From assembly GCA_035367155.1 (NCBI GenBank), contig DAOSJI010000001.1, forward strand, positions 85,621 through 149,620: 64,000 bases of DNA. Direction: 5' to 3'. This document shows positions 4,071 through 51,428 of the stretch, piece after piece. Position 1 is the first letter of the stretch; each line of letters begins with the position of its first letter. This DNA is from Bacilli bacterium. Lineage in GTDB: Bacteria; Bacillota_I; Bacilli_A; RFN20; CAG-826. The position numbers and the translations under genes are program-made. Below the pieces are notes generated by a model that saw only the letters and a list, made by a program, of their open reading frames with translations, made no database searches and was not told the DNA's origin.

Positions 4071-4790
4071 ATGGAAGTAATCGTAATTCGTTTAGTCCCA
4101 TATAAAGAATATGATGTTATTGTTACTAGCTTATGTAGTGATGGTTTTTATTCTTTTAAGGCAAAGGGGCTTTTAAGACCAACTGCGAAACTATCCTCAA
4201 TTATTACGATTGGTAATCTAATTAATATTGAAACAATTGATGCAAAAGGTGGGCCACTTGTAGTTGGGGCCAAGCCACTTTTAAATATGTCTAAATTGTT
4301 AAGTAATTTTGATAAGATTACTGTTTTAAATTATCTAGCTGAACTAACTCGACTAATTATTAAAGAAAACGAGGAAGCAAGATTAATTTATCCATTTTTT
4401 AAAAGTGCACTTTCATATATAGAAGAAGATAAATCTCCACTTGTAATCGCTACTATTTTTTCGCTACATCTTTTAAATATTTGTGGATATGAACAGAATT
4501 TCGCAAGTTGTCAAAGTTGTGGAACGCTTAAAAATCTTGCTGCAATTAACATTAAAGAAGGCGGATTGTTTTGTGTTTACTGCAAAAAAACAATTGATAT
4601 TGAACTAGATGAAACAAATGTAAATGCTCTATATAATATATTTGTAAAAAAAGAAGGTGATTGGTTTTCTAATGAATTTAAAGAAAATCAAATGGCACCA
4701 ATCTTGAGGACCATTATCGAATTTTTAAGCGATGTTTTTAGTTTGACTTTTCAAAGTTTACCACTTTTAAAACTAAGTTTTAATCTTTAA
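4071..4790 (+). CDS. recO: DNA repair protein RecO
   Basis: Lies after era as in Bacillus. CxxC...CxxC zinc finger (CQSCG...CVYCK). Confidence 0.85.
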   Translation: MEVIVIRLVPYKEYDVIVTSLCSDGFYSFKAKGLLRPTAKLSSIITIGNLINIETIDAKGGPLVVGAKPLLNMSKLLSNFDKITVLNYLAELTRLIIKENEEARLIYPFFKSALSYIEEDKSPLVIATIFSLHLLNICGYEQNFASCQSCGTLKNLAAINIKEGGLFCVYCKKTIDIELDETNVNALYNIFVKKEGDWFSNEFKENQMAPILRTIIEFLSDVFSLTFQSLPLLKLSFNL

Positions 4791-4890: not shown

Positions 4891-6264
4891 ATGAAAAAGA
4901 AGCATGAATTCGAAACAATTGTGAATCATTTAATTACTTCTGGCTTTGTTTATCAAGGTTCTGAAATTTATGGTGGTTTATCTAATACATGGGATTATGG
5001 TCCCTTAGGTGTTGAACTTAAAACAAACATTAGAAATTTATGGTGGAAGAAGTTTGTACAAGAATCTCGCTACAATGTTGGAGTTGATGCTGCCATTTTA
5101 ATGAATCCTGCTGTATGGAGAACAACGGGTCACGTAACAACATTTAATGATCCATTAATTGATTGTCGCAAATGTCGCATAAGACATCGAGCGGATCAAC
5201 TTATTGAAGATCAATTTCCTGATGTTAAAGTAAGTGCAATGAATGATGAACAAATCTCAGTATTTATAAAAGAAAATAAAGTTAAATGTCCAAATTGCGG
5301 TGCCTCTGATTTTACAGATATTCGTAAGTTTAATTTGATGTTTAAAACACACATTGGCGTAACTGAAGATAATCAAAGTGAAGTTTATCTTCGTCCTGAA
5401 ACTGCTCAAGGTGTATTTACAAACTTTAAAAATGTGCAACGTACGAGTAGAAAAAAGATTCCCTTTGGAATTGCTAATGTTGGAAAATCTTTTAGAAACG
5501 AGATAACGCCAGGCAATTTTATTTTTAGAACTAGAGAATTCACTCAAATGGAATTAGAGTTTTTCTGTGCTCCAGGTACTGATGATGAATGGTTTAAATA
5601 TTGGAAAGATTTTTGCATTGATTTTGTGAAAAGTCTTGGTATTAATGAGGAAAACTTACGTTTTAGAGACCATGATAAGAATGAATTATCGTTTTATTCT
5701 AAAGCAACGACAGATATTGAATATTTGTTCCCCTTTGGATGGGGTGAAATATGGGGTATTGCTAATCGTACTGATTACGACTTAAGACGTCATATGGAAG
5801 AAAGTGGTGAAAATTTCGAATATTTAGATCCCGCGACTAACGAAAAGTATATTCCTTACTGCGTTGAACCATCAGTCGGCCTTGATCGATTATTATTAAT
5901 GGTATTAACTGATGCCTATGATGTAGAAGAACTTGAAAATGATTCTCGCATTGTTATGCGGTTAAATCCGGTACTAGCACCATATACAATCGCTGTTTTA
6001 CCACTTAGTAAGAAGCTTAATGATAAAGCTCTTGAACTTTTTGATGAATTAAGCAAACACTTCCGTGTTATTTATGATGATACGGGTAGTATTGGTAAAC
6101 GTTATCGCCGTGAAGATGCGATTGGAACACCGTTCTGTGTAACAGTTGATTTTGACACATTAGAAGATAACACTGTTACAATTCGTGATCGTGACACGAT
6201 GGATCAAATTAGATTACCAATTCATGAATTAATAGCGTATTTTGGTGATAAAGTATATTTTTAG
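4891..6264 (+). CDS. glyQS: glycine--tRNA ligase (homodimeric GlyQS type)
   Basis: 457-aa class II aaRS with typical GlyQS sequence ([29 protein letters not shown]). Confidence 0.95.
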
Positions 6265-6291
6265 TAGATTACTGGTTATTTAATAGTAAAG
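6252..6291 (+). repeat. 11-nt phased AGTA array (units at 6252, 6263, degenerate 6274, 6285)
   Basis: AGTATATTTTT AGTAGATTACT GGTTATTTAAT AGTAAAG. It spans the glyQS stop (TAG TAG tandem) and ends at the dnaG SD. Confidence 0.55.
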
Positions 6292-6304
6292 AAAGGGAGG
6301 CAAT

Positions 6305-10130: not shown

Positions 10131-10903
10131 TTGAAACAAGAAAATTACTTAGATACTTTGGAAAACTTTATCCAAAACGAATTGCGAAAGAAAATCATGA
10201 CTTTGTAGGTTTAATGACTGGCAAGTTACCCGAGAAAATTGAAAGGATTGTCATTTGTTTAGATTTAGATCGCTCAATTATTGAAGAAGTTTTGGTTTTT
10301 AAACCAGATATTGTTTTTACCCATCATCCCTTTATTTATGGAACACGCTTTCAAGTCTTTAAAAAAGACGAAGATAAGAAAGAATTCGCTTTGTACTTAG
10401 ATGAAATTAATCTTCCGGTTTATTCACTTCATACTAACTTTGATAGCGGAAAACAAGGTATGAACGATGCGCTGGCAGAAAGATTAGAATTAATTAATAT
10501 TCGCCCCTTAGAAAATAATCCAATGGCAAGAGGTGGAGAGTTAAAAGAACCGTTTAAAATCGCTGAATTTGCTAGTTTTGCTACTAAAATTCTTAATGTT
10601 CCGTATGGTTTATTGATTGATAAAGGAGAGCAACTAATTAGATCAGTCGCAATTGTAGGCGGCGCAGGTAGTCGCTCCTGGAAGGTAGCAAAAGAAGAAG
10701 GTTATGACCTTTTTATTAGTGGTGATGTACCTCATTATGTAAGAAGAGATATTGAATTAGCTAACTATAATTATCTAGATTTACCACATGAAATCGAGAA
10801 CATTTTTATGGAACAATTAAAAAAAGTGCTGTTAGACTTAGATCCAGCACTTAAAATCAAAACAATTACCCATGAAATGCCTCCAAAGGTAATTAGGGTT
10901 TAA
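10127..10903 (+). CDS. Nif3-like dinuclear metal center protein (YqfO family)
   Basis: THHPF and HTNFD motifs. Synteny with trmK. Confidence 0.85.
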   Translation: MIETRKLLRYFGKLYPKRIAKENHDFVGLMTGKLPEKIERIVICLDLDRSIIEEVLVFKPDIVFTHHPFIYGTRFQVFKKDEDKKEFALYLDEINLPVYSLHTNFDSGKQGMNDALAERLELINIRPLENNPMARGGELKEPFKIAEFASFATKILNVPYGLLIDKGEQLIRSVAIVGGAGSRSWKVAKEEGYDLFISGDVPHYVRRDIELANYNYLDLPHEIENIFMEQLKKVLLDLDPALKIKTITHEMPPKVIRV

Positions 10904-14449: not shown

Positions 14450-16723
14450 TTATACTCTTGCAACCTTATTATTTTGGTATTTTTGGTATAGGAAATATCC
14501 AACTACCGCTAAACCTAAGATAGCAAGAATAATAAATAATGTCCACCACCAACTACCGATTAGATAGATGAAACTTGAAATTACATAAGATACTACTAAC
14601 CAGAATATTATTGTTCCTATGAATTGTTTTCTTGTTAATTCGGCCTTAGCAGTGGCTACTGCCGCCATACAAGGAATAGTAGTCATGTTAAAAACGATAA
14701 AAGAAAGTAAGGCAGGTAAGTTAATGTTAGTTAACTGAATCATCGCCGTTACACTATCGACATCGCTATCACCACCAATGGTAATTAGACCGGCTGCTGC
14801 TAAAGAAGCAGCAATTGTTCCAAATGTTCCAATTGCATTTTCTTTAGCAATTAAGCCTGTTACAGCTGCAGCGATAAAGACCCACCCGTATTTTGTAAGT
14901 TGGCTACCAAAACCTAAAGGAGTAAATAAAGGTCGTACTAATTGAGCAACATTCATTAAAATACTTTGTTCAATTTGGCTATCTTCTAAGAACTCCCAAT
15001 TGAAACTAAAGTGAGCTAAAAACCATACTACAACTGAAGAAACAAGAATAATAGTAAAGGCTTTTTTAACAAAGTGTTTAGCCTTATCGTATAGATGTAT
15101 AAATAATGCTTTTGCTTTTGGCAAACGATATGGCGGTAATTCCATAATAAATGGTGTAGTTTCACCTTTTAACATGGTTTTACGCATAATAATTGCAGTA
15201 ATCATTGCTAAAACAACACCAATTGCATACATTGAAAAGACAATTATATCAACGTTTCCTACACCAAAATATTGGACGATTCCACCAGAAACCGCGAGTA
15301 GAATCGGAACTTTTGCACCGCAGCTAAAGAATGGAATAACTCTAATTGTTGCAACGCGCTCATGTTCGCTTTTTAGTGTTCTTGCATTAATCATTGCAGG
15401 AATTGAACAACCAAAGCCCATAAGCATTGGGATAATTGAGCGACCTGAAAGACCGAATTTTCGGAAAATACGATCTAAATTAAAGGCGACTCGAGCCATA
15501 TAGCCAGTATCTTCAAGAAGGGAAATGAAGAAGTATAAAACAATAATTTGTGGTAAAAACGATAAAACAGCAAAGACACCTGCTAAGATACCATCAAATA
15601 GAAGGCCTCCAAGCCAAGCTGGCCCTTTATAAATACTTGCTAATCCATCTGAGATGCTATTACAAGCTAATTCTAATAGATTAAATAAAATTACACCTGG
15701 CGAATTTATACCCCCCTCACCAAATACACCTTCAAATGCAGTTCCAGGTAGAGTTACAAAATCTTCACCAAGAAGACCGCCAATAAAAAGGAAGTTTTCA
15801 GAAAATGTAAGATGGAAAATAATGAATACAATCGCTATAAAGATCGGAATACCGAATATACGATGTGTAAGAATTTTATCAGCTAAACCAGTACGGCTTA
15901 ATTTACGTTTCTTTTTACTTGGTGTAGTTTCCTCTTTAGTGACAACGGAAACAACACCTTCTAAATTAGCAACAATCCATCGATATCTTGCATCCGCGAT
16001 AAAAGCTTCTACATCATCATTAAAAGTAGTAGAAGTGAACTTGAAATCGCTGTTTTTAAGAAACTTCAGTGCTTCTGGATGCTTTTTTATTTCATATTCG
16101 TCATTTTCTAAAAGTTTAATAGCATGAAATAGAGGTTCAACGACTTCATTGCTACGGAAATTTTCTTCAAGCAAGTTAATCGTTTCACTAATTTCGCTAT
16201 TTTCTAATACCGTTCGTGCTTTTCTTTTCTTTTTAGCGTTTTTTCTAACTGCTTCAATGAGTTCATTAATTCCTTCTTCACGAAGAGCAGAAATTGAAAT
16301 AACTGGAACTCCTAAACGCTTTTCAAGTAATTTAACATCAATTTGCTTTCCACTTTTTTGAAGTTCATCACTCATATTAAGTGCTATAACAAGCGGAATA
16401 TTAGTTTCTAATAGCTGAGTAGTTAAATATAAACTTCTCTCTAGCGTCGTTGAGTCAATGATATTAATAATAATGTCACAGTTTTTCCCTAATAAATAAT
16501 CACGAGAAATAATTTCCTCGGTTGTATAGGGAGAAAGTGAGTAAATACCTGGTAAGTCAACGATTGAGATTGCTTCATTAGTTCGGTCTTTTCTATATAA
16601 TCCCTCACGTTTTTCGACTGTTACACCAGGCCAGTTACCAACATGTGCACGAGCACCTGTAAGAATATTAAAAAGGGTCGTTTTACCGCTGTTTGGTTGA
16701 CCCGCAAGTGCTACTTTAATCAT
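14450..16723 (-). CDS. feoB: ferrous iron transporter FeoB
   Basis: N-terminal G domain (GQPNSGKTT, DLPG, NMSD) followed by a polytopic membrane domain. 757 aa. Confidence 0.95.
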   Translation of the reverse strand: MIKVALAGQPNSGKTTLFNILTGARAHVGNWPGVTVEKREGLYRKDRTNEAISIVDLPGIYSLSPYTTEEIISRDYLLGKNCDIIINIIDSTTLERSLYLTTQLLETNIPLVIALNMSDELQKSGKQIDVKLLEKRLGVPVISISALREEGINELIEAVRKNAKKKRKARTVLENSEISETINLLEENFRSNEVVEPLFHAIKLLENDEYEIKKHPEALKFLKNSDFKFTSTTFNDDVEAFIADARYRWIVANLEGVVSVVTKEETTPSKKKRKLSRTGLADKILTHRIFGIPIFIAIVFIIFHLTFSENFLFIGGLLGEDFVTLPGTAFEGVFGEGGINSPGVILFNLLELACNSISDGLASIYKGPAWLGGLLFDGILAGVFAVLSFLPQIIVLYFFISLLEDTGYMARVAFNLDRIFRKFGLSGRSIIPMLMGFGCSIPAMINARTLKSEHERVATIRVIPFFSCGAKVPILLAVSGGIVQYFGVGNVDIIVFSMYAIGVVLAMITAIIMRKTMLKGETTPFIMELPPYRLPKAKALFIHLYDKAKHFVKKAFTIILVSSVVVWFLAHFSFNWEFLEDSQIEQSILMNVAQLVRPLFTPLGFGSQLTKYGWVFIAAAVTGLIAKENAIGTFGTIAASLAAAGLITIGGDSDVDSVTAMIQLTNINLPALLSFIVFNMTTIPCMAAVATAKAELTRKQFIGTIIFWLVVSYVISSFIYLIGSWWWTLFIILAILGLAVVGYFLYQKYQNNKVARV

Positions 16724-19878: not shown

Positions 19879-19895
19879 CTACATATTTAGTAAGA

Positions 19896-19931
19896 AAAAA
19901 ATGCGACATTATTAATTAGTGTCGCTTTTTT
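19896..19931. terminator. bidirectional intrinsic terminator between the convergent yneF-like gene and plsY
   Basis: Stem gcgaca/tgtcgc flanked by an A-run on the left and a T-run on the right. Confidence 0.7.
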
Positions 19932-19971
19932 ATTACTTATTTTATTACTGACTAACTACCAATAAACTACT
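19931..19971 (-). repeat. 11-nt phased AGTA array (4 units)
   Basis: The - strand reads AGTAGTTTATT GGTAGTTAGTC AGTAATAAAATA AGTAATA. It starts 15 nt after the plsY stop. Confidence 0.6.
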
Positions 19972-28784: not shown

Positions 28785-28812
28785 AGTTGTAATAATACAT
28801 ATTATGTTAACG
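28785..28812 (+). other. candidate dif (Xer recombination) site
   Basis: AGTTGTAATAA-TACATA-TTATGTTAACG has the 11-6-11 layout with an inner ATAA/TTAT palindrome. The right arm matches the E. coli XerD arm TTATGTTAAAT at 9 of 11 positions. It lies at the point where gene orientation converges. Confidence 0.5.
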
Positions 28813-28907: not shown

Positions 28908-28926
28908 TTATCCACAGTTTTCCACA
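28908..28926 (+). promoter_or_regulatory. two head-to-tail DnaA boxes
   Basis: TTATCCACA (28908-28916, perfect consensus) and TTTTCCACA (28918-28926, one mismatch), 10 bp start to start. Confidence 0.5.
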
Positions 28927-28962
28927 ACTTACGAACTACTTATAAACTACTAATTAACTACT
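28923..28962 (-). repeat. 11-nt phased AGTAGTT array (3 perfect units plus 1 degenerate)
   Basis: The - strand reads AGTAGTTAATT AGTAGTTTATA AGTAGTTCGTA AGTTGTG and runs into the DnaA boxes. It starts 21 nt after the stop of the MazF-like gene. Confidence 0.7.
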
Positions 28963-28982: not shown

Positions 28983-29570
28983 TTAATATAGTTTGTTTCG
29001 AAGTAATTTAAAATAACTTTCGATTATTATTTCCATTTGCTTTTCAGTTAAGATTGCTACTGGAACACGGTTTGGCCGTTGGTCTTCAGGAACATTTTCA
29101 AGACCAATTAATGCTTTTGCGTAAATGCGAACTTTATCAATTGCTCTTATTTGACTAATTAAAGCAATGCTCTCATAGTTACTAAATCGCCACTGTAGAT
29201 TACCGATATTTATTCTCCAACTACTATCTTTAATGTCTGTATCACGAATACTAACCAATGGACAAACTAATGCCGTTTGTGTTTTCTCATTGGAATTATG
29301 AAGAATTACTCCATAGTGTCGCCCTTTTAGTTCAGCGCCAACGCTTCCGCCATAGTCGATTTCAAAGACATCACCTTGCCTTAAATCGTACTGAAGTTCA
29401 TTATTAATTAAAAAACGTTCATAACGAACACAGTTAGCGAGCCAATCATTGATTGCTTCAAGGGTATCACTAGATAGTAATTCTTTTGGTTTTTCATTGC
29501 TTTCTTGCCTAATTTTAGCAAAACGACGCTTATTATCGCGCCGTTTATGATCGTTATTATAATAGTTCAT
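28983..29570 (-). CDS. PemK/MazF-family toxin-like protein with a ~65-aa basic/helical N-terminal extension
   Basis: The core GDVFEIDYGGSVGAELKGRHYGVILHNS...ALVCPLVS...LISQIRAIDKVRI follows the MazF/PemK pattern (GD..-.DF....G.E..G.RP..V....VAP.TS...DQIR.ID..R). SD AAGGAGG upstream. Confidence 0.65.
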   Translation of the reverse strand: MNYYNNDHKRRDNKRRFAKIRQESNEKPKELLSSDTLEAINDWLANCVRYERFLINNELQYDLRQGDVFEIDYGGSVGAELKGRHYGVILHNSNEKTQTALVCPLVSIRDTDIKDSSWRINIGNLQWRFSNYESIALISQIRAIDKVRIYAKALIGLENVPEDQRPNRVPVAILTEKQMEIIIESYFKLLRNKLY

Positions 29571-33477: not shown

Positions 33478-33494
33478 ATAAAAAACTCCTAACT

Positions 33495-33512
33495 TTATAC
33501 TAATATTCTACT
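33495..33512 (-). repeat. possible short (2-unit) AGTA phased repeat
   Basis: The - strand reads AGTAGAATATT AGTATAAAGTT, then the SD AGGAG of xerD in the same 11-nt register. The first unit contains the dinB stop TAG. Confidence 0.3.
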
Positions 33513-34744: not shown

Positions 34745-36631
34745 TTAGAGACTATTTTTAATTAGCGAAATAAGACTTTCAATATCTAAGCCAGTTATTT
34801 TATATTGATCACTAACAGAAGCATGCGTAATATTTTGTCGTGGGATTGCTCTTGTAATAATTTGTCCTTTAAAACCGTTATTATTTAACGTAGCGACAAG
34901 ATTATTTACAAAGCCGTATGATGTTGCATAAGGATCGATAATAATTACCTTCTTATAATGGTTTAATTTAGCAATTACATCTAAATCAAAAGGTGTCTGG
35001 AAAACAGCATTAATTAAGGTGATATTAATATTTTCTTTATATAGTTCTTCTTTAATCTTTTCAAAATGAGGCCCATAACTTACAAGGGCAACTTCACTTC
35101 TATTTTCTTCTTTTATGAGCCATTTACCAACTTCAAAAGCATCACCATTTAAAGAGTTGCTACTAATTTTACTGATTCTTTCGCGCGGATAACGAATAAA
35201 GAAAGGTCCGCCTTTATGGTTTAGTGATGTATAGACTAGTTTTTTAGCGAGTTCAGGTGTAGAAGCCATTGCTATTATTACATTTGGAATACCAATAAAA
35301 GCTGCCTGATCAAAAATTCCTTGATGTGTTGACCCATCAGCGCCAATAAGCCCAGCACGATCAACTAAAATTGTAGTAGCTAGATTCATCCTTGCTAAAT
35401 CATGAACAACTTGATCAAATGAACGTTGTAAAAAAGTAGAATAAATTGATATTATGGGGTGTTTTCCGCTTAAAGCAAGACCACTTGATAATGTGACGGC
35501 ATGTTCTTCAGCGATACCTACATCAATTGAACGACCAGGAAACTTTTTAAAAACTTCATCTAATTCCGAACCTTTTAAAGTAGCAGGATTTATTAAAAGA
35601 ACATCTTTATTTTCTTCCATTATTTTTTCAACGATATCAGCATACAATTTTGACCAAGTGATCAAGGATTCATGGTTGTTTTTTAATAACCCTGTCTCAA
35701 CATGAAAAGGTGCAATTCCATGCCAACTACCTTCTCTGTCGGTTTCAGCGGGTTTATATCCTTTACCTTTAGTTGTTTTAACATGAACAATGGTTGATTT
35801 TTGTTGTTTTTTGGCGAGTTGAAGCGCTTTATCTAGTTTTTTATAGTTATGCCCATCAACTAATCCAATATAGGCTAGTCCCATTTGCTCAAAGATATTA
35901 TGAGATATTAAGTGACGAGCAAACCAGTCTTTAATGTACCATGCTATGCGGTAAAAAAAGTATCCAACTCTTGATTTAAACATTAATCTTTTAAATCGCG
36001 ATTTCGATTTGATGTAACGTGGTGATATCTTCCAACGTCTAAACATCTTTGTTAAGGCACCAGTTGGTGGTGTAATTGACATTTCATTATCATTAAGAAC
36101 GATAATAACTTTATTATTGCGATGAGCTATATCGTTTAGTGCTTCAAAAGCTAGTCCGTTACTAATCGAGGCATCACCAATCAAAGCAACAACATGATAT
36201 TTTTCACCGTTTAAATCGCGAGCTATTGCCATTCCTTGTGCTGCGCTTAGTGAAGTTGATGAATGACCTGCTTCAAAGTGATCATATGATGATTCACTTC
36301 GTTTTTGGAAACCACTTACACCATCTTTGGTTCTTAAACCTTCGAGTTTGCGCCCTGTTAAAATTTTATATGTATAAGATTGATGGCCGACATCAAAAAG
36401 TAACTTATCTTCGTTAAAATCAAATGCTCTATTTAGGGCAATGGTTAAGCTTATCGAACCTAAATTACTACTTAAGTGGCCACCATATTTTGAGACTTGT
36501 TCTATTATTTCATCTCTAATTTGACTTTCGAGCATTTCAAGTTCATCTTTTGTTAAAGTAGCAACAAAATGAGGATCACTAATCCTTGTTAAGTCAAATG
36601 GTTCAATAATTTTCTTTCTTTTCTTACACAT
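34745..36631 (-). CDS. dxs: 1-deoxy-D-xylulose-5-phosphate synthase
   Basis: TPP motif GDASISNGLAFEALN and the typical Dxs N-terminus. No SD is visible upstream of the ATG. Confidence 0.95.
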   Translation of the reverse strand: MCKKRKKIIEPFDLTRISDPHFVATLTKDELEMLESQIRDEIIEQVSKYGGHLSSNLGSISLTIALNRAFDFNEDKLLFDVGHQSYTYKILTGRKLEGLRTKDGVSGFQKRSESSYDHFEAGHSSTSLSAAQGMAIARDLNGEKYHVVALIGDASISNGLAFEALNDIAHRNNKVIIVLNDNEMSITPPTGALTKMFRRWKISPRYIKSKSRFKRLMFKSRVGYFFYRIAWYIKDWFARHLISHNIFEQMGLAYIGLVDGHNYKKLDKALQLAKKQQKSTIVHVKTTKGKGYKPAETDREGSWHGIAPFHVETGLLKNNHESLITWSKLYADIVEKIMEENKDVLLINPATLKGSELDEVFKKFPGRSIDVGIAEEHAVTLSSGLALSGKHPIISIYSTFLQRSFDQVVHDLARMNLATTILVDRAGLIGADGSTHQGIFDQAAFIGIPNVIIAMASTPELAKKLVYTSLNHKGGPFFIRYPRERISKISSNSLNGDAFEVGKWLIKEENRSEVALVSYGPHFEKIKEELYKENINITLINAVFQTPFDLDVIAKLNHYKKVIIIDPYATSYGFVNNLVATLNNNGFKGQIITRAIPRQNITHASVSDQYKITGLDIESLISLIKNSL

Positions 36632-36634
36632 ATA

Positions 36635-36674
36635 AATTACTTATAATCTACTAATATATTACTAATAATATACT
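36635..36674 (-). repeat. 11-nt phased AGTA array (4 units)
   Basis: The - strand reads AGTATATTATT AGTAATATATT AGTAGATTATA AGTAATT. It fills the whole xseB-dxs spacer. Confidence 0.65.
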
Positions 36675-39573: not shown

Positions 39574-41739
39574 TTATTCCTTAACTTCGACTTCTTTTTT
39601 ATCTTCTTCTACAGCTTCTTTCGCTATTTCTTCTTTAACTTCTTTCTCTACTTCTTCCTTAACTATTTCCTTAGTTTCCTTCTCAGCTTCTTCCTTAACT
39701 ACTTCGTTAGTTTCCTTTTTAGCTTCTTCCTTAACGTCTTTTTTTACTTCTTTCTTAACTCCAAGAATTTCCCTAACTTTATTAGCTAGGGCTTCAGGTG
39801 TATATTCTAAAGATTCTAAAACATCTTTCATTGGGGCACTTAAACCAAAACGATTGATTGTAAAGGTATGTTTTGCAAATTCATGCCAGCCAAATGGAGA
39901 AAGTAGTTCAATAGCTATTCGTTTATTATAATCTTTGCCTAAAACTTCATTAATATAGTCTTCATCTTGAGTTTTAAATACTTCCATACTTGGAAGAGAA
40001 ACAACTCGAACATCAATCTTATCTTTAAGAAGTTCTTCTTTAGCTTTTAAGGCAAGACTAACTTCGCTTCCTGTTGCAATAAGGGTAAAATCTAGTTTTT
40101 TAACTTCTTTACTAATAACATAGCCACCTTTACTTGCATCATTATAATTTGAACCAACTAAAGTTGGTAAGTTTTGACGGCTCAATATTAGTGCTGTAGG
40201 TGTTTTCTTACTTAGAATCGCTTGTTTCCATGCTGTAGCAGTTTCTCTAGCATCTGCTGGACGCCAGACATTTACATTAGGTATTGCTCGAAGCATCGCA
40301 AGTTGTTCAATTGGTTGATGTGTAGGTCCATCTTCACCAAGAGCGACAGTGTCATGACTAAATAAATAAATAGCAGGAACTTTTGAAAGAGCAGCAACGC
40401 GAATTGCATTTTTCATATAATCACTAAATACGAGGAATGTACCTACATATGTTCTAAGTCCGCCGTGAAGTAGCATACCGTTTTGGATTGCAGCCATTGC
40501 AGCTTCTCGAATACCAAAGTTAATATTTCGTCCACCGCGATTTTCTGGAGTAAAATCAGTCCCGCTAAGTCCGCTGATTTTGGTCATTACTGAACTAGCA
40601 ACGTCTGCTGATCCTCCCATAAGAAAGGGAACTTCGTTATGAACCATATTTAAAATTGTGCCACTTGTTTTTCTTGTTGATTCATTAAATCCATCCGTAT
40701 ATTCAGGAATTTCATCAAAAATAAGCTCGTGACTATTATCAGAAAATGCGGCCATAAATGCTTTATAAGCGCGGTTATTACTATTTTCTAGATTAGCAAT
40801 CTTATCATCCCAATCTTTTTGAGCCCTTTTAGCACGTTCGCCAAATGTCGAGGCAAACTCGCTATAAACTTCATTAGGAATTTCAAAAGGAGCATAGGGA
40901 TAATTATATGTACCTTTTGCATATGAACCATCATCTTGACCAAGTGGGCTACCGTGTACTGCACTTGTGCCAGCTTTTCTTGAACCTTGGCCAATAATAG
41001 TTGAAACAATAATTAGCGTTGGTTTTTGTTTTGAGCGACGTGCTCTAGCAATTTTACGCGTTAAATCTTTTACATTATTGCCGTTTTTAACGACTAAAAC
41101 ATTCCATCCACTTGCTTGAAAACGTTTTTTAACATCTTCGCTAAAAGATAAATCAAGAGGTCCATCAAGAGTGACTTTGTTAGCATCATAGAAAACGATT
41201 AACCTTTTTAGTTTTTGATGACCTGCAAAAGAAATTGCTTCTTGTGAGATACCTTCTTGAAGACAACCATCACCAACTAAACAATATGTATAATGCCCAA
41301 AAAATGGCACTTCAGGATGTTGAGCTCGAATTGCCTCTTCTGCTAGAGCCATCCCAACAGCTTGGGCTAAACCTTGACCAAGTGGGCCAGTTGTTGCATC
41401 AACGCCAGGAGTATCAGTTACTTCTGGGTGACCAGGAGTAATTGAATTTAATTGACGGAATGCTTTTAAGTCATCCATCGTGATATTATAGCCTGCAAGA
41501 TGAAGTGTCGAATAAAGTAGAGCACTTGCATGACCAGCACTTAAAACAAAACGATCGCGATTAACCCAGTCTGGTTTTTCAGGATTAGCAACAAGATATT
41601 TTGTAAAAAGTGTGTATAGAATCGGCGCACTTCCAATCGCCATTCCAGGGTGACCACTGTTAGCTTTGTTTGTTACATCAATAACAAGAGCACGTATTGC
41701 ATTAACTGAAAGTGGTGCTTGTAAAATTGGTTTTGACAT
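39574..41739 (-). CDS. tkt: transketolase with a ~59-aa Lys/Glu-rich C-terminal extension
   Basis: Typical Tkt (SGHPG, GDGCLQEG, the PTHQPIEQL region). The core ends near residue 662 and a KE-rich tail follows. Confidence 0.95.
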   Translation of the reverse strand: MSKPILQAPLSVNAIRALVIDVTNKANSGHPGMAIGSAPILYTLFTKYLVANPEKPDWVNRDRFVLSAGHASALLYSTLHLAGYNITMDDLKAFRQLNSITPGHPEVTDTPGVDATTGPLGQGLAQAVGMALAEEAIRAQHPEVPFFGHYTYCLVGDGCLQEGISQEAISFAGHQKLKRLIVFYDANKVTLDGPLDLSFSEDVKKRFQASGWNVLVVKNGNNVKDLTRKIARARRSKQKPTLIIVSTIIGQGSRKAGTSAVHGSPLGQDDGSYAKGTYNYPYAPFEIPNEVYSEFASTFGERAKRAQKDWDDKIANLENSNNRAYKAFMAAFSDNSHELIFDEIPEYTDGFNESTRKTSGTILNMVHNEVPFLMGGSADVASSVMTKISGLSGTDFTPENRGGRNINFGIREAAMAAIQNGMLLHGGLRTYVGTFLVFSDYMKNAIRVAALSKVPAIYLFSHDTVALGEDGPTHQPIEQLAMLRAIPNVNVWRPADARETATAWKQAILSKKTPTALILSRQNLPTLVGSNYNDASKGGYVISKEVKKLDFTLIATGSEVSLALKAKEELLKDKIDVRVVSLPSMEVFKTQDEDYINEVLGKDYNKRIAIELLSPFGWHEFAKHTFTINRFGLSAPMKDVLESLEYTPEALANKVREILGVKKEVKKDVKEEAKKETNEVVKEEAEKETKEIVKEEVEKEVKEEIAKEAVEEDKKEVEVKE
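39651..39736 (-). repeat. 36-bp tandem repeat (about 2.4 copies) inside the tkt tail
   Basis: cttcttccttaacta recurs at 39651 and 39687, and cttcttccttaac at 39723. It encodes a roughly 12-aa KE-rich repeat. Confidence 0.75.
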
Positions 41740-44828: not shown

Positions 44829-45019
44829 TTTAAAGTAGTTTTTAAGGACGACGTTAGCCGCGGTACCACCTTAATTCGTAATTTATACGCACTTTATAAC
44901 TTTTTCGCAGTTAACGATTAATAATGCCTCCCTAGTGTCTAAAATAATTTACCACTTAGGTCTTTTCATCATCCAGACCCTTTCTAAAAAGTAAATAAAT
45001 GATTTCTAGTTCCTCGGCT
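44829..45019 (-). promoter_or_regulatory. T-box leader RNA controlling hisS-aspS
   Basis: The - strand carries AAUUAAGGUGGUACCGCGG (plus 44858-44872 is the rc of the T-box core), an AGAAAG bulge, the hairpin GGUCU...AGACC and a GUGGUA distal-loop motif. The candidate specifier GACAC lies at plus 44935-44939. Confidence 0.8.
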
Positions 45020-45025
45020 AATATG

Positions 45026-45084: not shown

Positions 45085-45124
45085 AAAAATTAAAAAAAGT
45101 AGCCTAATTTATAAACTACTTTTT
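45085..45124 (-). terminator. probable weak intrinsic terminator after relA
   Basis: The - strand reads aaaaaguag-13 nt-cuacuuuuu followed by uuaauuuuuu. Its 5' arm is the last AGTAGTT unit of the array. Confidence 0.4.
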
Positions 45125-45164
45125 ATTTACTATAAATCAACTTAATAACTACTAATTAATTACT
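45114..45164 (-). repeat. 11-nt phased AGTA array (5 units in strict register)
   Basis: The - strand reads AGTAATTAATT AGTAGTTATTA AGTTGATTTAT AGTAAATAAAA AGTAGTT. It starts 13 nt after the relA stop. Confidence 0.7.
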
Positions 45165-50189: not shown

Positions 50190-51428
50190 CTATTTTTGTT
50201 CTACGAAGCGATATTCTTCTGCAAGTGAGACAAAAGCATCACGAAATGCAGGTAGATCTTTAATATCAAGCGAACATCCCCCAGCACATTCATGTCCTCC
50301 ATAGGTAAGTAGATAGTCTTTTAATTGCGTAAAAGCTTTAACAATTGAAAAACCAGGTTTACTTCTTGCACTTCCTTTTAAAATGTTAGGTTTTTTACTA
50401 TCGGGCGTAAAAACGATTGTTACTTTATCGTAACTATTTAAGTATCTAGCGGCAATTAAACCAATTAAACCTTCTTTTTCGTTAGTATTTGCAACAATTG
50501 CGGGAAGAGATAAATCGACATCAGGCGTTTTTAAGAAAGCATCGCTCATTGTCTTTTTTCTTGCTTCGTTTACATCTAAAATCCAAGCATAAATTTCATT
50601 AATTCTTGTTTTATTATCGGTTGTTAAATATTCAACTAACACATTTATTTCTTCATTTTGACACATTCGTCCAATGGCGTTTAGTTTTGGAGCAATTCGC
50701 ATCGCAATTATTTCTTCATCAACAAAATCGCCTTCTGCTAATTTAGCTAGAGCATAATAGTGATTTTCATTAATAAATTTTAAACCAAGGCGAACAATAT
50801 CGCGATTATATGAAACTAAAGGCATCATATCGCTAATGGTAGCAATTGCTGCTAGAGTAGCTAGATATTCATCATCTTTTTCTAATAAGGCGACTGCAAG
50901 CATATAGGCAACATAGGCTCCGCAGGAAACAGTTTCACCGTACTTACTAAAAAGTGGGTGCATAATTGCGTATGCATTAGGAACTTCTTTAATTACCTCA
51001 TGATGATCGGTAATAATAACATCAATTCCTGCCTTATTTGCAACTTCTATTGCTTCATTTTGTGAAATACCGTTATCAACCGTAATAATAAGATTATAGT
51101 TTTGAGACGCGTATTTATTTACTCGCTCAATCGTTAACCCATACCCATCCTTATAGCGAGACGGTAAATAAAAATCAACAGGATAACCAAGCATCATAAA
51201 AGTCTTTTTTAAAATTGAGGTCGCCATGATGCCATCACAATCATAGTCGCCGTAGATAATTATTTTTTCGCCGTTTTCTATAGCAAATTTAATTCTATTA
51301 ACAATTTTACCGATATCTTTAAAGTTAGTGTATGAGGGTAGCAAACTAAAAGATGGAGCGACACAAAGACGCTCATAATCATCTTTTGAAAGATTAAAAT
51401 AGTTTAATAGTTTATCTAAAAAGGTCAT
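50190..51428 (-). CDS. recJ: single-stranded-DNA-specific exonuclease RecJ (DHH/DHHA1 core), ending at an internal TAG
   Basis: DHH motifs (GDYDCDG, VDNG, ITDHH) and DHHA1 (GGHECAGG). 412 aa up to TAG 50190-50192. Confidence 0.9.
   Translation of the reverse strand: MTFLDKLLNYFNLSKDDYERLCVAPSFSLLPSYTNFKDIGKIVNRIKFAIENGEKIIIYGDYDCDGIMATSILKKTFMMLGYPVDFYLPSRYKDGYGLTIERVNKYASQNYNLIITVDNGISQNEAIEVANKAGIDVIITDHHEVIKEVPNAYAIMHPLFSKYGETVSCGAYVAYMLAVALLEKDDEYLATLAAIATISDMMPLVSYNRDIVRLGLKFINENHYYALAKLAEGDFVDEEIIAMRIAPKLNAIGRMCQNEEINVLVEYLTTDNKTRINEIYAWILDVNEARKKTMSDAFLKTPDVDLSLPAIVANTNEKEGLIGLIAARYLNSYDKVTIVFTPDSKKPNILKGSARSKPGFSIVKAFTQLKDYLLTYGGHECAGGCSLDIKDLPAFRDAFVSLAEEYRFVEQK

Follow-up and report, generated by a model that had tools for sequence, protein, structure and literature searches.

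Phased 11-nucleotide AGTA arrays past stop codons in an uncultured clade of low-GC Bacilli

Intrinsic terminators and Rho sites are regarded as the main marks of gene ends in bacteria, joined in some lineages by palindromes resembling REP (repetitive extragenic palindromic) elements. What, then, are the short direct repeats that follow the relA stop codon and five further gene ends in the window studied here, a 64,000 nucleotide (nt) stretch of the Bacilli bacterium assembly GCA_035367155.1 (contig DAOSJI010000001.1, positions 85,621 to 149,620)? We found six arrays of an 11-nt unit in this window, each on the sense strand of the gene immediately upstream. A preliminary description had proposed a dispersed family of phased arrays placed past stop codons and co-oriented with the upstream gene, and the family proved real in these respects, at the six sites of the window and for 20 of 21 arrays in a larger clade sample. 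The window has a G+C content of about 32%, uses the standard genetic code and shows a Firmicute-type gene order (ybeY-cdd-era-recO-glyS-dnaG-sigA, parE-parC/plsY, nusB-xseA-xseB-dxs, relA-hisS-aspS). Several metagenome assemblies carry an identical RelA and are near-identical at the DNA level where compared; the closest named relatives are metagenome-assembled genomes (MAGs) labelled 'Bacilli bacterium' or 'Erysipelotrichaceae bacterium'.

Array A (45110..45164, minus strand) starts 13 nt past the relA TAA and comprises, as first described, five units in 11-nt register with 5' ends at 45164, 45153, 45142, 45131 and 45120 (AGTAATTAATT, AGTAGTTATTA, AGTTGATTTAT, AGTAAATAAAA and AGTAGTTTATA). It is followed by a hairpin and U-run predicted by RNAfold (AAAAAGTAGTTTA...GGCTACTTTTTTT; 45092..45124, minus strand), the 5' arm of which is unit 5 of the array; a 96-nt segment with this hairpin folded at -19.6 kcal/mol (z = -3.0). 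The four units of array B (36631..36674, minus strand) occupy the whole 49-nt spacer between xseB and dxs, and the dxs ATG (36631-36629), which has no Shine-Dalgarno sequence, starts on the final base of unit 4. Array C (28919..28962, minus strand) holds three perfect AGTAGTT units and a fourth, AGTTGTGGAAA (AGTTGTG), and starts 21 nt past the stop codon of an orphan PemK/MazF-like gene (28983-29570). A conserved hairpin follows (GTGGAAAACTGTGGATAAACCCACTTTTC; 28897..about 28925, minus strand) with a 5' arm overlapping unit 4; its counterpart in a related locus (L212) folded at z = -4.7. Array D (19939..19971, minus strand) lies 3' of the plsY TAG with three units in register (AGTAGTTTATT, GGTAGTTAGTC and AGTAATAAAAT) and is immediately followed by an intrinsic terminator (AAAAAAGCGACA...TGTCGCATTTTTTT; 19895..19931, minus strand) that is common to the convergent UPF0154/efp genes. 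Array E (6252..6295, plus strand) has four units (AGTATATTTTT, AGTAGATTACT, GGTTATTTAAT and AGTAAAGAAAG). Its unit 1 represents the final, still coding glyS codons, the glyS TAG (6262-6264) overlaps the first two bases of unit 2, and the dnaG Shine-Dalgarno sequence GGAGG comes immediately after the array. In array F (33491..33512, minus strand), the dinB TAG lies within the first of only two units (AGTAGAATATT and AGTATAAAGTT), and the xerD Shine-Dalgarno sequence AGGAG comes next. All recurrences listed in the preliminary description were thus recovered at or next to their given positions, with one correction: a fourth AGTAAT of array D, counted there as a unit, is out of register by 1 nt. 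Array F had already been called weak, which holds for the window; the same dinB-xerD junction carries three units in a relative (L216). As also described, the arrays end either at terminators (A, C and D) or at the Shine-Dalgarno sequence or start codon of the next gene (B, E and F).

A logo of 57 units showed an almost invariant core, with A at position 1 in 55/57, G at position 2 and T at position 3 in all 57, and A at position 4 in 44/57. Position 5 was A, G or T, and positions 6-11 favoured T, T, W, A, T and T with a G+C content of only about 7%; C made up 0-9% at any unit position. The unit is AGTA(R)TTWATT with the conserved core AGT(A), one G per 11 nt amid otherwise pure A/T, and the heptamer AGTA(G/A)TT first taken as the conserved unit is too long. 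Predicted RNA structure inside the arrays was weak: array B with short flanks (61 nt) folded at -6.9 kcal/mol with z = 0.0. The arrays are A/T-only and lack the G+C-rich hairpin and U-run of intrinsic terminators themselves; separate hairpins come after them. They also do not resemble Rho utilization (rut) sites, which are unstructured, C-rich and G-poor and contain YC dinucleotides, as their invariant bases are A, G and U with little C. An Rfam scan of the window gave no match at the gathering score, and at an E-value of ≤1 it returned only the T-box of hisS and a chance match to a long non-coding RNA, both off the arrays. Literature searches by sequence and by concept brought up nothing relevant to the arrays. 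As far as Rfam and these searches reach, the earlier statement that no described element matches them holds.

Several scans addressed chance. The window has about 300 copies of AGTA on each strand, or about one per 210 nt rather than one per 150 nt as had been estimated. On the minus strand, eight AGTA pairs were found at distance 11 and 0-5 at other distances, and AGTA chains of at least three existed at period 11 only. We then scored arrays by counting AGTA as 2 and AGTN or NGTA as 1, over periods 7-16. With four units and a required sum of ≥6, the window and eight close loci together yielded 13 arrays, all of them at period 11. With three units, 295 kb of clade DNA contained 21 arrays at period 11 and 0-2 at the others. 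This clade sample was centred on loci picked via array-bearing genes (comparison loci carry L-numbers; orthologous ones were fetched by exact-protein look-ups of RelA, PemK-like and GlyS homologues), and orthologous arrays and genes in its counts are non-independent observations. Owing to this choice of loci, the array density of about one per 10-20 kb and the gene list of array carriers are provisional. In 500 dinucleotide-preserving shuffles of the intergenic segments of the window the mean was 0.01-0.08 arrays compared with 3-4 observed, and none of the 500 reached the observed number. A negative-control set of 1.07 Mb of RelA-centred loci from more distant Firmicutes, obtained from a metagenome scan with a RelA profile that returned mostly distant relatives, showed no period-11 excess (7 arrays vs 0-6 at other periods), and three of its seven period-11 arrays belonged to the nearest relatives, L127 and L130. 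Period scans and shuffles exclude chance, as had been argued, and together with the distant Firmicutes they therefore establish the period-11 arrays as real and specific to this clade. A scan of viral contigs revealed nothing comparable apart from one phage locus (L221). A pattern scan of GTDB was uninformative, most of the at least 120 matches being perfect 11-bp microsatellites from many phyla; the seed matches in L063, L078 and L107 were coding sequence on the opposite strand, and the same loci nonetheless held true plsY arrays.

Conservation at orthologous junctions bears on whether the arrays are under selection. The lineages that share junctions have orthologous proteins of only 55-80% identity. 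An array follows relA in L207, L208, L209, L127 and L210 (RelA 67-75% identical) and is absent from L211 (63%), L128 (59%) and beyond. The array after xseB was found in L207, L209, L210, L211, L212, L216, the GTDB MAG loci L053 and L066, and L130 (RelA 55%), the next gene in these relatives being dxs or dinB. Arrays also follow plsY in L212, L215, L063, L081 and L107, and the PemK-like gene in L212 and L215/L216, there along with the next hairpin. The glyS-dnaG junction carries an array in L292 and L294 and none in L293. When orthologous arrays were compared in register, AGT and the spacing were kept at 98-100%, whereas positions 5-11 showed about 50% pairwise identity, the value for random A/T. 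Selection thus acts on the spacing, an indication that a multimeric or cooperative partner touches the array repeatedly. What selection maintains comprises the motif, the exact spacing, the strand and the junction.

The same data bear on an origin without function, in which the arrays would be decayed 11-bp minisatellites produced by slippage in A/T-rich spacers. Perfect 11-bp tandem repeats with AGTARTT are common in many phyla, and Tandem Repeats Finder (TRF) read arrays B and C, and only these, as period-11 repeats. We nevertheless consider this origin highly improbable and close to refuted, as AGT and register were kept at the same six junctions in spacers that are otherwise randomized, 20 of 21 arrays lie on one strand relative to their gene, and no period-11 excess was seen in 1.07 Mb of other Firmicutes. 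Nor do the arrays behave as variable number tandem repeats, because arrays A and B were identical in every assembly covering them (six assemblies of the species), with no copy-number variation; the units moreover differ outside AGTA.

The position of the arrays relative to genes was highly constrained in the clade sample. All 21 arrays were intergenic with none within a coding sequence, 20 of them came immediately after a gene and on its sense strand, and divergent, promoter-only spacers contained none. Their starts ranged from 12 nt ahead of the end of the stop codon to about 23 nt past it (in the window, from 12 nt ahead to about 20-21 nt past). Enrichment, bias in position and orientation at gene ends, and conservation at orthologous junctions, the absence of which had been named as a refutation of the family, were all found. 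The stop codon was often supplied by the unit itself (AGTAG or AGTAA). TAG stops ended 9 of 21 array-bearing genes and 34 of 181 others (Fisher p = 0.02, with non-independent genes), and TGA stops 0 of 21 and 31 of 181, respectively (genes of the window, L207-L215, L292 and L294). This bias arises partly because the first AGTAG unit often supplies the stop codon.

These observations are relevant to a possible action on the ribosome. Since 11 is 2 mod 3, successive units could, as the preliminary description had raised, act as a stop backstop in all frames, here for ribosomes that read through or shift frame; in another version, the units would be weak Shine-Dalgarno-like pads (AGUAGUU compared with AGGAGGU) on which ribosomes land or are retained for re-initiation at the next cistron. 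All three frames were indeed closed in 16 of 21 arrays compared with 49% of shuffles, with 6.5 stops per 44 nt compared with 4.8, the stop codon often falls within a unit with the TAG excess given above, and starts without a Shine-Dalgarno sequence lie at a Shine-Dalgarno-like distance from the last AGU. However, the invariant bases are A1, G2 and T3 and not T-A-R, TAA or TAG occupied positions 3-5 in only 45 of 82 units, and 5 of the 21 arrays left a frame open. Periods of 7, 8, 10 and 13 would serve a backstop equally well, yet only 11 occurs. Arrays with a terminator alone downstream have no cistron for re-initiation, and arrays are found at few specific genes and not at gene ends generally. 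We therefore regard an action on the ribosome as very doubtful. An in-frame TAG in recJ had been thought to make a backstop worth noting. It has no link to the arrays: the TAG (50190-50192, minus strand) stems from an AAG-to-TAG change inside a run of A and is shared by the window, L001 and L004, and a locus with 99.4% identical DNA (L002) encodes an intact RecJ of 519 amino acids (aa). It is a strain-level nonsense polymorphism or a tolerated truncation.

Do the arrays follow transcription or replication? Most are co-oriented with both their gene and the replication fork. The gene plsY, in contrast, lies beyond a dif-like site and points away from it, and its array is still 3' of plsY in six lineages (window, L212, L215, L063, L081 and L107). 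Array orientation thus tracks transcription, not replication, and since the plsY array stays with its gene beyond the dif-like site, we rejected replication-polar signals of the KOPS (FtsK-orienting polar sequences), Ter or Chi type. Primase CTA sites were rejected by reasoning, as the strand containing the C would be the leading-strand template. The candidate dif site for Xer recombination (28786-28810, minus strand; TTAACATAATATGTATTATTACAAC) lies where genes converge and the GC skew changes sign (about 28.6-29.0 kb of the window), at the peak of the cumulative skew and 4 kb from xerD. The same 25-mer is identical in L212 and L215, the flanks of which differ. Since a dif-like site coincides with skew peak and gene convergence, the window probably spans the replication terminus. 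Array C is located at this terminus-like switch. We also considered an origin-like reading of array C, with DnaA boxes and A/T repeats. The hairpin behind this array (L212 about 10640-10690; L215 about 4410-4440) contains two DnaA-box-like 9-mers, TGTGGAAAA and TGTGGATAA, which form its stem and loop, and about 0.8 perfect DnaA boxes are expected by chance in the window. We rejected this reading as the site is the gene-convergence and skew switch with a conserved dif-like sequence, and as the adjacent DnaA-box-like motif TGTGGATAA belongs to the conserved hairpin. The DnaA-trio or unwinding element also differs, having period-3 repeats beside DnaA boxes at oriC whereas the arrays have period 11.

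The elements that come after the arrays give a further indication of their role. The order stop codon, array, terminator was observed for arrays A, C and D of the window, after relA in L207, after the PemK-like gene and plsY in L212 and L215, and in L020, L081, L063 and L051, an arrangement that places the array within the transcript. In five of these places (arrays A and C, after the PemK-like gene in L212 and L215, and after plsY in L212) the last unit is the 5' arm of the next hairpin. Intercistronic arrays occupy the entire spacer. In nine cases (array B, L207, L209, L211, L212, L216, L053, L066 and L130) the downstream ATG, of dxs, dinB or xerD, lies 5-10 nt past the last AGT and has no Shine-Dalgarno sequence. 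A sigma-70 promoter or leaderless-mRNA reading of the intercistronic arrays was rejected because the -10-like hexamers vary between lineages and there is no -35 box.

Going beyond the observed anatomy, phasing, strand, position and conservation, we infer an action at the RNA level, a protein, and a direction of its effect. The reading that we favour, though tentatively, is that the arrays represent a single-stranded RNA platform for a putative cooperatively binding protein that controls the downstream terminator or start codon. The array would be transcribed as part of the mRNA of the upstream gene, in its 3' untranslated region (UTR) or in an intercistronic spacer, and would form an unstructured A/U-only platform presenting one AGUA per 11 nt. 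The protein would bind cooperatively, with one protomer or dimer per 11-nt step. When bound, it would extend to whatever adjoins the last unit, which is either the terminator's 5' arm or a start codon 5-10 nt further on, often without Shine-Dalgarno sequence. Through this reach it could set downstream read-through or translation: occlusion of the 5' arm would change read-through, and occlusion of the start region of the next cistron would change its translation. The logic would be like that of TRAP on (G/U)AG repeats or CsrA on GGA sites. An action within the transcript is suggested by the sense-strand rule, the plsY case, the array-before-terminator order and the A/U-only, unstructured make-up; the low G+C content at positions 6-11 and the weak predicted structure fit a single-stranded platform. 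Among the alternatives offered by the preliminary description, a binding platform on 3' UTRs and intercistronic spacers is the best fit.

A number of points weigh against an RNA platform. One array, in L294 (4573-4616), is an exception to the usual order and comes after and not before the deoC terminator. The array in L130 (about 15358-15390, minus strand) runs antisense to the adjacent genes, immediately ahead of the Shine-Dalgarno sequence of a plus-strand gene. The last unit overlaps a hairpin arm in only about half of the terminator-linked arrays, and 22% of clade genes have no clear Shine-Dalgarno sequence anyway, so that the link to such starts is not exclusive. Direct repeats at one per helical turn are equally typical of DNA-binding proteins such as OmpR/PhoB, ParR and MraZ, and the known ring-shaped RNA binders step at shorter distances, TRAP at 5-6 nt, HutP at 7 nt and Hfq at 3 nt.

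The arrays might instead be DNA operators. A winged-helix (OmpR/PhoB/WalR-like), ribbon-helix-helix or AbrB/MraZ-like protein would then occupy them head-to-tail, with one copy for each helical turn, and would serve selected transcription units as a polar roadblock or insulator where they end. The layout of a 7-nt core and an A/T spacer at 11 bp in 3-5 copies would suit this, and the unit xGTWAH resembles the WalR/PhoP half-site TGTWAH-N5. Spacers of A/T only would lend themselves to minor-groove contacts, one array (L294) comes behind a terminator, and the set of junctions is gene-specific and regulon-like. OmpR/PhoB/WalR sites (the pho box with 7 bp and a 4-bp A/T spacer; WalR TGTWAH-N5-TGTWAH) are likewise direct repeats of 11 bp with a 6-7 nt core and 2-6 units in register, and the arrays agree with the direct-repeat arrangement of this class (6-7 bp core, 10-11 bp spacing), as judged by the logo of 57 units and their exact register. 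However, these sites act on duplex DNA and overlap or closely precede the -35 box of the promoters that they regulate, whereas the arrays are not promoter-proximal and adjoin starts (B, E and F) or precede terminators (A, C and D), following the transcribed strand, with none in a divergent spacer. Between the last unit of array A and the hisS -35 box further downstream lie 66 nt. Array-then-terminator order and strict co-orientation with transcription would be unexpected for a duplex-binding regulator, and no response-regulator gene adjoins any array. We consider a DNA operator unlikely. The 7+4 layout had also been compared with that of PhoB/OmpR sites and of ParR centromere iterons; this is a formal likeness only, since the arrays are not promoter-proximal and no partition genes are nearby. 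The parC iterons of plasmid R1 (ten 11-bp direct repeats) share the strict 11-bp register and form a single plasmid locus of about ten copies beside parMR, whereas the arrays occupy at least six dispersed chromosomal loci of 3-5 units with housekeeping neighbours. MraZ, a ring-forming oligomer, binds 3-4 direct heptamer-like repeats spaced by roughly one turn of the helix, in this respect like the arrays; their sequence is of the GTGGG type in Bacillus and E. coli, and AAAGTG[T/G] in Mollicutes. These repeats have period 10 and constitute a single site upstream of the mraZ/dcw promoter, in contrast to the period of 11 and the many sites at 3' ends found here.

The orphan PemK/MazF-family gene upstream of array C (28983-29570, minus strand) encodes a protein of 195 aa, of which about 60 form a basic N-terminal extension, and no antitoxin gene is adjacent. 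It has the same syntenic position beside the dif-like site in three lineages, and its 3' UTR has the most perfect array. A word-indexed protein search placed its homologues in three clusters only. This protein is one candidate reader or cutter of the arrays. If a cutter is involved, the arrays would be clusters of targets for an endoribonuclease, RNase Y or the PemK/MazF-like protein, in single-stranded A/U-rich RNA with a lone G. A cut would strip the protective terminator from the upstream mRNA, or split cistrons and leave a 3-8 nt leader on the downstream open reading frame. In line with this, the PemK/MazF-like gene was found in three lineages and in each of them carries the best arrays (2-3 perfect AGTAGTT) in its 3' UTR, the gene stands without adjacent antitoxin gene at a position that was kept, and starts without Shine-Dalgarno sequence are found 5-10 nt past the last unit. 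RNase Y cuts preferentially next to G in A/U-rich RNA. Arg84 and Ser107 of the PemK-like protein are conserved near the positions of the catalytic Arg and Thr of MazF, but in an alignment with PDB sequences these residues were off by one. Exact 11-nt phasing, which is conserved here, would moreover not be needed for cleavage, and AGTAGTT was not avoided on the sense strand of coding sequences (8 sense vs 12 antisense). An endoribonuclease target is thus quite unlikely.

When known systems were compared, the arrays lacked at least one defining feature of every class tested, and their formal layout is that of pho boxes, WalR sites and parC iterons. Functionally, the target arrays of TRAP, HutP or CsrA appear closest, and REP elements seem closest in placement. 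TRAP sites (the Bacillus subtilis trp leader and the start regions of trpG, trpP and ycbK) are, like the arrays, tandem short purine-rich motifs including UAG in single-stranded RNA. An oligomer recognizes them, both within a leader and between two cistrons (pabB-trpG), and through them a terminator hairpin or a start codon is controlled, similar to the role proposed here. TRAP sites, however, consist of 9-11 (G/U)AG triplets that are 2-3 nt apart (period 5-6), and the arrays of 3-5 units with period 11 and core AGUA; the former stand in 5' leaders and the latter 3' of stop codons. No mtrB-like gene was seen. Among periods 7-16 there was no excess besides period 11, a range that lies above the 5-6 nt TRAP step. 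HutP targets are two sets of three UAG triplets 4 nt apart, giving a period of 7, at which we found 0-1 arrays compared with 13-21 at period 11. REP elements and BIMEs (bacterial interspersed mosaic elements) of enterobacteria are also dispersed, located just past stop codons or between cistrons and co-transcribed, and REP can affect the fate of the upstream mRNA. These are GC-rich imperfect palindromes that form hairpins, whereas the arrays are A/T-only direct repeats with little structure.

Further features were noted during the analysis. A T-box leader (44841-45023, minus strand) lies upstream of hisS-aspS with 81.7 bits and E = 3e-18; it was absent from the default Rfam scan because its score was below the gathering score of 93. 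A sigma-70-type promoter, TTGCTA-17-TATAAT, is located at 45054-45026. The 3' end (39590-39760) of a transketolase gene (39574-41739, minus strand; 721 aa) contains 12-, 24- and 36-nt tandem repeats with up to about seven copies (TRF). The protein exceeds those of L207 and L209 (656-661 aa) by about 60 aa, suggesting that repeats extend its C-terminus. An unrelated dispersed element was seen in Bacteroidales with 60% G+C (L022, L033, L055 and L059, all from one MAG, RGIG6226; L069). It consists of 3-4 tandem AGTAGTTCTTC followed by inverted copies, forming a long hairpin, with a conserved 'ccctacgg' ahead, and is present in at least four copies in one genome.

More speculatively, the arrays stand a fair chance of being the cis element of an undescribed post-transcriptional system in an uncultured clade of low-GC gut and rumen Bacilli, in which an oligomeric or cooperative RNA-binding protein would read one AGUA per 11 nt in 3' UTRs and intercistronic spacers and would couple a limited, conserved group of growth, DNA-metabolism and stress genes (relA-hisS, glyS-dnaG, xseB-dxs/dinB, dinB-xerD, plsY and a domesticated MazF-like gene). 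If DNA is the target instead, they would be unusual polar operator arrays at 3' ends. If the arrays are a phased, oriented and sequence-specific signal that is kept at gene ends across family-level divergence, they would represent a new kind of gene-end or intercistronic signal and would imply a trans-acting factor in these poorly studied gut and rumen bacteria. An element of 33-55 nt would be a tractable probe for finding this factor, and the arrays may help to explain the expression of dxs, dinB, xerD and other cistrons that have no Shine-Dalgarno sequence.

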